64,000 nucleotides of DNA, taken from assembly GCF_050320075.1 (NCBI RefSeq), contig NZ_CP190018.1, one strand, 5' to 3'. Position 1 is the stretch's first letter, and the number at the start of each line of letters is the position of its first letter. Positions 35,416 through 37,849 of this stretch are shown here, piece after piece. Origin of the DNA: Escherichia coli. Its GTDB lineage: Bacteria; Pseudomonadota; Gammaproteobacteria; Enterobacterales; Enterobacteriaceae. Below the pieces are notes generated by a model. It did not search any database and had not been told where the DNA came from. It saw only the letters and a list, made by a program, of their open reading frames with translations. Position numbers and translations under genes: made by a program.

Positions 35416-36213
35416 TTAATAAAGTGAGTCGATATTGTCTTTGTTGACCAGTAATACCTTATGGAAACGGATAATTCGCTTATCCATATCTACGTCGGCC
35501 TTACCGAGATTCTCCATTTCTAATCCAGGTTTGATCTCTTCACCCTTCAGCAACGTGCTGGCGACGGCCGCGAGTGCGTAACCTGCAGAGGCCGGATCGT
35601 AAGTAATCCCTTCGGTGATATCACCACTTTTAATCAGTGATGCCGCCTGTGAAGGGATCATCATGCCATAGACTGCGACTTTATTTTTCGCCCGTTTCTC
35701 TTTCACTGCACGTCCCGCGCCAATCGGACCGTTTGAACCAAAGGAGACAACCGCTTTCAAGTCAGGATAGGTTTTCATCAGGTCCAGTGTGGTACGACGT
35801 GAGTCATCCACACTCTCGGCAACCGGCATGCGGCGGGTAACTTCATGCATATCCGGGTAATGCTCTTTCTGGTATTTCACCAGCAAGTCAGCCCATAAGT
35901 TATGCTGCGGCACGGTCAAACTACCCACGTAAATCACATAGCCGCCCTTGCCACCCATGCGTTTCGCCATATGCTCAACATATTCAGCGGCAAATTTTTC
36001 GTTATCAATGATTTCGATATCCCAGTTAGCACTTGGCTGACCGGGGGATTCGTTGGTCAGAACCACAATTCCGGCATCTCGCGCTTTTTTGAATACCGGT
36101 TCCAGCACGTTGGCATCGTTTGGCACAATTGTAATTGCATTAACCTTACGGGCGATTAAATCCTCAATGATTTTAACCTGTTGCGGAGCATCAGTACTTG
36201 AAGGCCCCACCTG
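35416..36213 (-). pseudogene. periplasmic sugar-binding protein gene, C-terminal fragment (split by IS)
   Basis: ORF 35416..36210 continues in frame from the N-terminal fragment once the IS is removed. Confidence 0.85.
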
Positions 36214-36260
36214 TGTACTGCACCCATTTTGTTGGACGATGAAATGGAATAGCCCCTAAT

Positions 36261-36782
36261 ATGTCAAAGCCAAAATACCCTTTTGAAAAGCGCCTTGAAG
36301 TCGTGAATCACTACTTCACAACTGATGATGGTTACAGGATCATCTCGGCACGTTTTGGTGTCCCCCGAACCCAGGTCAGGACATGGGTTGCCCTCTATGA
36401 AAAACATGGAGAAAAAGGTTTAATTCCCAAACCTAAAGGCGTTAGTGCTGATCCAGAGTTGCGTATTAAGGTCGTGAAAGCTGTGATCGAGCAGCACATG
36501 TCCCTTAATCAGGCTGCTGCTCACTTTATGCTTGCTGGTAGTGGTTCTGTAGCCAGGTGGCTGAAGGTCTATGAAGAGCGCGGAGAAGCTGGTTTACGCG
36601 CGCTCAAGATTGGCACCAAAAGAAACATTGCAATATCAGTTGATCCAGAAAAAGCGGCATCAGCATTGGAGCTGTCAAAAGACCGACGCATTGAGGATCT
36701 TGAAAGGCAAGTTCGATTTCTTGAAACGCGGCTTATGTATCTAAAAAAGCTGAAAGCCTTAGCTCATCCCACGAAAAAGTAA
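36261..36782 (+). CDS. insJ: IS3-family transposase OrfA (HTH)
   Basis: 173-aa ORF beginning MSKPKYPFEKRLEVVNHYF; gene symbol is from memory of IS150. Confidence 0.85.
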   Translation: MSKPKYPFEKRLEVVNHYFTTDDGYRIISARFGVPRTQVRTWVALYEKHGEKGLIPKPKGVSADPELRIKVVKAVIEQHMSLNQAAAHFMLAGSGSVARWLKVYEERGEAGLRALKIGTKRNIAISVDPEKAASALELSKDRRIEDLERQVRFLETRLMYLKKLKALAHPTKK

Positions 36783-37630
36783 AAGTACTCAACGAGCTAA
36801 GGCAGTTTTATCCTCTTGATGAGCTTCTCAGGGCTGCGGAGATACCGCGCAGTACGTTTTATTACCATCTAAAGGCTCTCAGCAAGCCTGACAAGTATGC
36901 GGACGTTAAAAAGCGTATTGGTGAGATTTATCACGAGAATAGAGGCCGATACGGATACCGTAGGGTAACGCTGTCTCTTCATCGAGAAGGGAAACAGATT
37001 AACCATAAAGCTGTTCAGCGCCTGATGGGAACCCTCTCACTTAAAGCAGCGATTAAGGTCAAGCGATACCGCTCTTACAGAGGAGAGGTAGGGCAAACCG
37101 CCCCTAATGTTCTCCAAAGAGATTTCAAGGCTACGCGGCCAAACGAGAAGTGGGTTACCGATGTTACTGAATTTGTAGTCAATGGGCGCAAGCTGTATTT
37201 GTCTCCAGTAATAGATCTCTTCAACAACGAAGTTATTTCTTACAGCCTTTCGGAAAGACCAGTGATGAACATGGTTGAGAATATGCTCGATCAGGCATTC
37301 AAAAAGCTTAATCCTCACGAGCATCCTGTTCTGCACTCTGACCAGGGATGGCAGTATCGTATGAGAAGATATCAAAATATCCTTAAAGAACATGGTATTA
37401 AACAAAGCATGTCCAGAAAAGGCAATTGTCTGGATAATGCTGTGGTGGAGTGTTTCTTTGGAACCTTAAAGTCGGAGTGTTTTTATCTTGATGAGTTCAG
37501 TAATATAAGCGAACTGAAGGATGCTGTTACGGAATATATTGAATACTACAACAGCAGAAGAATTAGCCTGAAATTAAAAGGTCTGACTCCAATTGAATAT
37601 CGGAATCAGACCTATATGCCTCGTGTTTAA
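36779..37630 (+). CDS. insK: IS3-family transposase OrfB (DDE integrase core), expressed by -1 frameshift from orfA
   Basis: Open -1 frame; annotated ORF 37025..37630 carries the integrase catalytic region; 5' boundary is approximate. Confidence 0.8.
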
Positions 37631-37656
37631 CTGTCCAACTTTTTGGGGTCAGTACA

Positions 37657-37849
37657 CCTGTGAGGCATTAACACCAAAGGCTTTACCCGCCTCGACCACA
37701 CCTTCGCCCATGCGATTAAACCACGGCATACCATCGACTTTAGAGATATTCACCACGACTTTTTCCGCTGCCTGGAGCGGCGCAGAAATTAGCGCAGCGC
37801 CTAATAACAGCGAAGACACCATATTGATAACAAAACGTTTATTCATCAT
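37657..37849 (-). pseudogene. periplasmic sugar-binding protein gene, N-terminal fragment with signal peptide
   Basis: MMNKRFVINMVSSLLLGAALISAPLQAAEK...; the frame runs into a stop inside the IS terminus. Confidence 0.85.

Follow-up and report, generated by a model that had tools for sequence, protein, structure and literature searches.

An IS150 insertion in aauA, which encodes the binding protein of the Aau ABC transporter, in a lineage of Escherichia coli

The closest described counterpart of the locus studied here is AauABCD of EHEC, an accessory ABC transporter for L-arabinose and D-ribulose (Z0415-Z0419; PMC11127945, PMC12307932). In EHEC, L-arabinose switches on the aau operon by way of AraC, and the transporter aids fitness in the mouse gut (PMC11127945). 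Its periplasmic binding protein AauA, the structure of which is PDB 9I1M, binds D-ribulose with a KD of about 2 µM and L-arabinose with a KD of about 600 µM (PMC12307932). The insertion sequence IS150 is best compared with two sources: the annotated copy of K-12 MG1655 (insJ/insK, 3720633-3722075), and the simple insertions recorded in the Lenski long-term evolution experiment (LTEE; PMC11708052, PMC7881107, PMC11101190). Among 54 IS150 insertions of the LTEE, the target duplications were 3 bp in 44 cases, 4 bp in 6, 5 bp in 2 and 1 bp in 2 (PMC11708052). An outward promoter has also been documented at the 3' end of IS150 (PMC11101190).

We analysed a window of 64,000 nucleotides, the whole stretch under study, from E. 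coli contig NZ_CP190018.1 (assembly GCF_050320075.1). The locus reads yahJ, a gene for an ASCH protein, aauA, the aauB ATPase gene, the aauC and aauD permease genes and yahK. It has the same gene order as EHEC and a nearly identical binding protein, but in the window IS150 interrupts the gene for this protein, and regulation and transport are known only from EHEC. The features of the operon are as follows.

31966-32922, minus strand: aauD (permease), intact
32919-33890, minus strand: aauC (permease), intact
33883-35367, minus strand: aauB (ABC ATPase), intact, with V425I relative to strain 746
35416-36213, minus strand: aauA 3' fragment, residues Q64/V65 to Y328, without signal peptide
37657-37849, minus strand: aauA 5' fragment, signal peptide and residues up to V65, followed by a Tyr codon and a stop within the IS
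37850-38099, minus strand: intergenic region upstream of aauA, 100% identical to strain 746

The counterpart of the last region in EHEC is the reporter region of about 300 bp that showed L-arabinose- and AraC-dependent Paau activity (PMC11127945).

When positions 36214-37660 were deleted, the two aauA fragments joined into a minus-strand ORF of 987 nt and 328 codons (...GVNASQV-GPSSTDAPQQ...), exactly as the sequence-only reading had written it. The restored gene has no nucleotide difference from the intact allele of strain 746, and no other lesion was found in the flanking fragments. The restored protein of 328 residues is identical to PDB 9I1M at 326 of 328 positions over the full length, the differences being D200V and E297Q, which identifies what had been called simply a binding-protein gene as aauA. 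All six published D-ribulose contacts (K37, W43, E118, H167, E196 and S223) are present in the restored protein. The insertion parts K37 and W43, on the 5' fragment, from E118, H167, E196 and S223, on the 3' fragment.

PGAP names this protein 'autoinducer 2 ABC transporter substrate-binding protein', which is a family-level label and not a function. LsrB belongs to the same periplasmic-binding-protein fold family and is a distant relative (5gta/1tjy, E ~1e-21 to 1e-24). The restored AauA scored 111 bits against the NCBIfam LsrB equivalog model NF011937, below its cut-off of 384, and 137 bits against the RhaS model, the cut-off of which is 342. Unlike the autoinducer-2 of LsrB, the characterised ligand of the nearly identical EHEC protein is D-ribulose (PMC12307932). 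Between aauA and aauB, a GC-rich hairpin with a T-rich tail was observed at 35389-35406 (minus strand). It looks like an intra-operon attenuator, which may let the binding protein out-express the membrane components. In E. coli B REL606 the whole ASCH-aauABCD block is absent and yahJ adjoins yahK (REL606 315150-315530), with a short remnant in the gap annotated as 'incomplete hypothetical protein'.

The element that divides aauA, its reading frames and its signals are located as follows.

36214-37656, plus strand: complete IS150 (IS3 family, IS150 group), 1443 bp, assigned by sequence identity
36214-36244, plus strand: left terminal inverted repeat (IRL), starting with TGTACTG, from comparison with the reverse complement of the right end
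36261-36782, plus strand: orfA (InsA, 173 aa), an uninterrupted ORF
36725-37630, plus strand: orfB, an open frame in -1 relative to orfA, with the DD(35)E catalytic domain
36743-36749, plus strand: A AAA AAG, the -1 frameshift heptamer
36756-36803, plus strand: frameshift-stimulating stem-loop with a 10-bp stem, GCCUUAGCUC/GAGCUAAGGC
37579-37613, minus strand: terminator-like hairpin in the right end of the IS, a perfect 15-bp stem followed by a U-run, from a consensus scan
37626-37656, plus strand: right terminal inverted repeat (IRR), with CAGTACA at its end

The sequence-only reading had described an IS150-type element of 1443 bp with TG...CA termini and imperfect terminal inverted repeats. 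Each of these values was reproduced on recomputation, and the element proved to be IS150 itself. It matches copies in many complete E. coli genomes at 100% over positions 1-1443, and these copies are annotated as 'IS3-like element IS150 family transposase'. Compared with the mobile_genetic_element of K-12 MG1655, the length of 1443 bp and the ends are the same and there are four substitutions (99.72% identity). The first bases are TGTACTG and the last are CAGTACA, and the terminal inverted repeats agree at 22 of 31 positions. The flanks of IS150 copies resemble one another, with matches starting from 10-15 bp outside the IS end, and an element longer than 1443 bp was considered on this ground. 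This was rejected because the K-12 annotation and all copies stop at the same TGTACTG and CAGTACA; the likeness of the flanks is a property of the target DNA. IS150 is carried by 2864 of the 5426 complete E. coli genomes, at roughly 6000 places in all. No further IS150 fragments, as a sign of a composite structure or a rearrangement, were found in the window.

The reading frames are those of an intact copy, in the 0/-1 arrangement that had been described from the sequence, with orfA uninterrupted at 36261-36782 and the -1 frame open at 36725-37630. The OrfA protein is identical to InsJ of K-12, and OrfB differs from InsK of K-12 by two amino acid changes, S47G and A132V. OrfB scored 348 bits against the NCBIfam IS3 transposase model NF033516 (cut-off 160), and its D187 and E223 have the D-to-E spacing of 35. 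The K-12 copy agrees with that of the window in its frameshift heptamer, stem-loop and DD(35)E motif. In the stem, 36756-36765 pairs with 36794-36803, and the fold of 36736-36815 has an energy of -18.3 kcal/mol (z = -3.2), lower than that of all 200 shuffled sequences. The A AAA AAG motif reportedly goes back to Vogele and colleagues in 1991, who are also said to have found that expression of InsB relies on frameshifting. One substitution relative to K-12 replaces the TGA stop of orfA by TAA, which removes the GTG annotated as the insK start in K-12; it sits within the loop of the frameshift structure. Given the reported reliance of InsB on frameshifting, the loss of this GTG is not regarded as a defect. 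The allele of the window, with transposase WP_085948682.1, is itself widespread. Length, identity, ends, frames, slippery site, transposase and duplication, every feature open to test, were all found to be those of IS150. The intactness of all known parts suggests that this copy is competent to transpose.

At the two junctions, the duplicated bases and their neighbours were found at these positions.

36204-36209, plus strand: left half of a palindromic IS150 target, GCCCC + A, abutting the duplicated bases
36210-36213, no strand: left copy of the CCTG target-site duplication, from the sequence
37657-37660, no strand: right copy of the CCTG target-site duplication, from the sequence
37661-37666, plus strand: right half of the palindromic target, T + GAGGC (reverse complement of GCCTCA)

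The identical CCTG noticed earlier on both sides is thus present where it had been described. The literal repeat at both junctions is 7 bp (ACCTGTG) because the IS ends are TG...CA, so the duplication size of 4 bp rests on the canonical ends of IS150. With 4 bp, CCTG belongs to a minority size for this element (6 of 54 in the LTEE). Rearrangement mediated by the IS, instead of simple insertion, was rejected because the flanks are contiguous in genomes with the empty site and the duplication is present.

In order to find the empty site, a reconstruction of 1000 bp (500 bp + 500 bp around the insertion) was used as the query. The site is uninterrupted at 100% identity in at least eight complete E. 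coli genomes. Strain 746 aligns with the window to the left and to the right of the IS, and its flanks abut with a single CCTG, which is the comparison with related strains that the sequence-only reading had called for. Its claim of a single transposition therefore stands, as a simple insertion with target duplication. Over 19 kb, the window and strain 746 differ by five SNPs, none of them in aauA. They are at positions 34095, 38320, 39770, 40246 and 42191 of the window. Four of the five are non-synonymous (aauB V425I, ASCH E64G, yahJ G141C and yahI P302L), and these four fall within 6.2 kb around the IS.

Of the 5426 complete E. coli genomes, 2218 have aauA, and the gene is almost never split: these 2218 records hold it in 2222 places. 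Two of the 5426 carry the exact IS150/aauA junction, namely YZLc1-3, isolated from chicken faeces in China, and Ec-U3, recovered from the urine of a patient or other human host in Burkina Faso. A single base separates the window from YZLc1-3 in the 53 kb that were compared, and Ec-U3 differs from the window by two SNPs in 33 kb and by an extra IS1. Since YZLc1-3 and Ec-U3 carry the same rare neighbouring alleles, the split gene goes back to one event inherited by a clone and not to two hits. The additional IS1A of Ec-U3 lies between pdeL and betT (33014-33772 of the compared Ec-U3 locus, about 49061-49076 of the window) and is present neither in the window nor in YZLc1-3, suggesting that the aauA::IS150 allele is older than further IS activity in the clone. 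In both public records, PGAP lists the aauA halves as pseudogenes ('missing C-terminus' and 'missing N-terminus'), names the IS as IS150 and annotates a 'programmed frameshift' on its transposase. The disruption is real but ordinary, a textbook insertional knockout that is already flagged by public annotation.

These comparisons also bear on when and where the insertion occurred. It had been called probably recent, which appears to hold in a relative sense: other copies match the IS exactly, the two CCTG repeats have no mismatch, and only two of 5426 genomes have the junction. The accompanying view that it affects this strain was too narrow, since both YZLc1-3 and Ec-U3 carry the insertion.

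The site itself, GCCCCA-CCTG-TGAGGC, carries a motif on both sides of the duplicated bases. Our first sample of flanks was biased, as the matches were ranked by similarity of the left flank; hence the motif was tested again on LTEE coordinates and on copies picked regardless of their flanks. Of 24 de novo LTEE IS150 sites in REL606, with coordinates from Table S1 of PMC11708052, 8 had a GCCYC that ended 1 nt ahead of the duplication, compared with a background of 0.46% in the same DNA (binomial P ~1e-13). These LTEE sites passed through selection, but a motif at a constant distance from the duplication is not something that selection would produce. In IS150 sites GCCYC is often mirrored as GRGGC across the duplication, and two natural IS150 sites, chosen regardless of flanks, also have the motif. 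The LTEE disruptions thus share with the present allele the element, the simple mode of insertion with duplications of 3-5 bp and the local motif (PMC11708052, PMC7881107, PMC11101190). They differ in that they arose in laboratory E. coli B, whereas aauA::IS150 is a natural allele of a wild lineage in a gene absent from REL606.

We tentatively suggest that IS150 is a fairly sequence-specific inserter. It would prefer 5'-(A)GCCYC-R-[3-5 bp duplicated]-, and do best when this is mirrored (GCCYCR-N3-5-YGRGGC, often a terminator-like hairpin); the evidence invites such a rule, and we would not yet count on it. No published IS150 target consensus was found in the literature searched, which stops short of Schwartz 1988 and Haas & Rak 2002; the rule may thus be on record already. 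Only two full palindromic targets are present in the restored window of 62.5 kb, and IS150 occupies one of them. The other, GCCCCACTCCCTGGGGC at 38746-38762, just downstream of yahJ, is unoccupied here; in LTEE population Ara-6, IS150 inserted into this same sequence (REL606 315207, 5-bp duplication).

Because the aauA site is a full palindromic preferred motif, the position of IS150 is explained and no selection is needed. This weighs on the alternative that the disruption was selected, the loss of Aau being advantageous in an avian/extraintestinal lineage. The allele did last long enough to turn up both in chicken faeces from China and in human urine from Burkina Faso, and the share of non-synonymous changes among the SNPs near the IS (four of five relative to strain 746) would fit such a history. 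On the other hand, the split is confined to one lineage, with aauA uninterrupted in essentially all 2218 carriers, so there is no sign of recurrent loss. The benefit of Aau to EHEC in the mouse gut (PMC11127945) also argues against it. We consider selection for loss of Aau improbable.

Very probably, then, a single IS150 insertion at a preferred site in aauA has left the Aau transporter non-functional in this rare lineage. In the proposed sequence of events, a single transposition would have placed IS150 in codon 64/65 of aauA, with duplication of CCTG. AauA would be cut to its signal peptide plus 38 mature residues and a Tyr before the stop, and the remaining 263 residues would be left without signal peptide or promoter. 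About 1.4 kb of untranslated antisense IS would now separate the AraC-dependent promoter from aauBCD. Because aauA is promoter-proximal and the operon is read in the direction opposite to that of the IS, transcripts started at the aau promoter would enter the right end of the IS antisense and untranslated, and would meet the terminator-like hairpin 44-78 nt inside. The predicted fold of this hairpin (37579-37613) has an energy of -33.6 kcal/mol (z = -5.0), and it may serve to stop outside transcription from reading into IS150. Polarity on the downstream aau genes would be expected, and aauBCD are intact but probably silent. Binding-protein-dependent ABC importers are not expected to work without their binding protein. 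Inactivation of the transporter, as first read from the sequence, is therefore strongly indicated; some expression of aauBCD could persist through weak read-through or from a promoter present by chance.

A real insertion might nevertheless not be null, if aauBCD were transcribed and served by another binding protein, or if frequent precise excision kept a functional subpopulation. The intact aauBCD and the known outward promoter of IS150 (PMC11101190) lend this some plausibility; here, however, the 3' end that carries this promoter faces away from aauBCD. A scan for promoter-like sites at the left end of the IS reading into the aauA 3' fragment and aauB found none, and the strong antisense hairpin lies in the path of transcripts from Paau. 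Neither fragment holds all the ligand-binding residues. It is unlikely that another binding protein stands in for AauA, since the closest paralogue models are far below their cut-offs (RhaS 137 vs 342, LsrB 111 vs 384). Hence, we regard a transporter that still functions in this lineage as very improbable.

Two further lesions were observed in the window. In betI, the repressor gene of the choline-to-betaine operon (51658-52245, plus strand), there is an internal stop at codon 89 (51922-51924), which is annotated in YZLc1-3 and Ec-U3 as well. In lacY (12288-13540, plus strand), a 1-bp deletion relative to REL606 shortens a T5 run to T4 at 12430-12433 and frameshifts the permease after about 47 codons. 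This deletion may be genuine, or the assembly consensus may be wrong at the homopolymer. A possible long-read error of this kind in the same record is what might lead one to take the IS for a mis-placed repeat in a strain that really has an intact aauA, but the base-perfect junctions with a duplication of a size that IS150 makes, the fit of the site to the IS150 target motif and the identical insertion in two genomes that were sequenced and assembled independently of each other, from different hosts on different continents, make an assembly artefact exceedingly improbable.

The practical consequences of these observations are small. The YZLc1-3/Ec-U3 lineage should be scored as Aau-negative in carriage surveys that measure only Z0415-9 read coverage. 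It also provides a natural aauA knockout beside a nearly isogenic intact strain, 746, with five SNPs in 19 kb. The PGAP product name 'autoinducer 2' masks a characterised D-ribulose binding protein, AauA. The sole point that may go beyond what is known is the IS150 target motif. If the rule is true, the genes lost to IS150 in natural populations and in experimental evolution, aauA included, would be partly predictable from sequence, and the motif would aid in predicting hot spots and in separating mutational bias from selection where parallel insertions occur.
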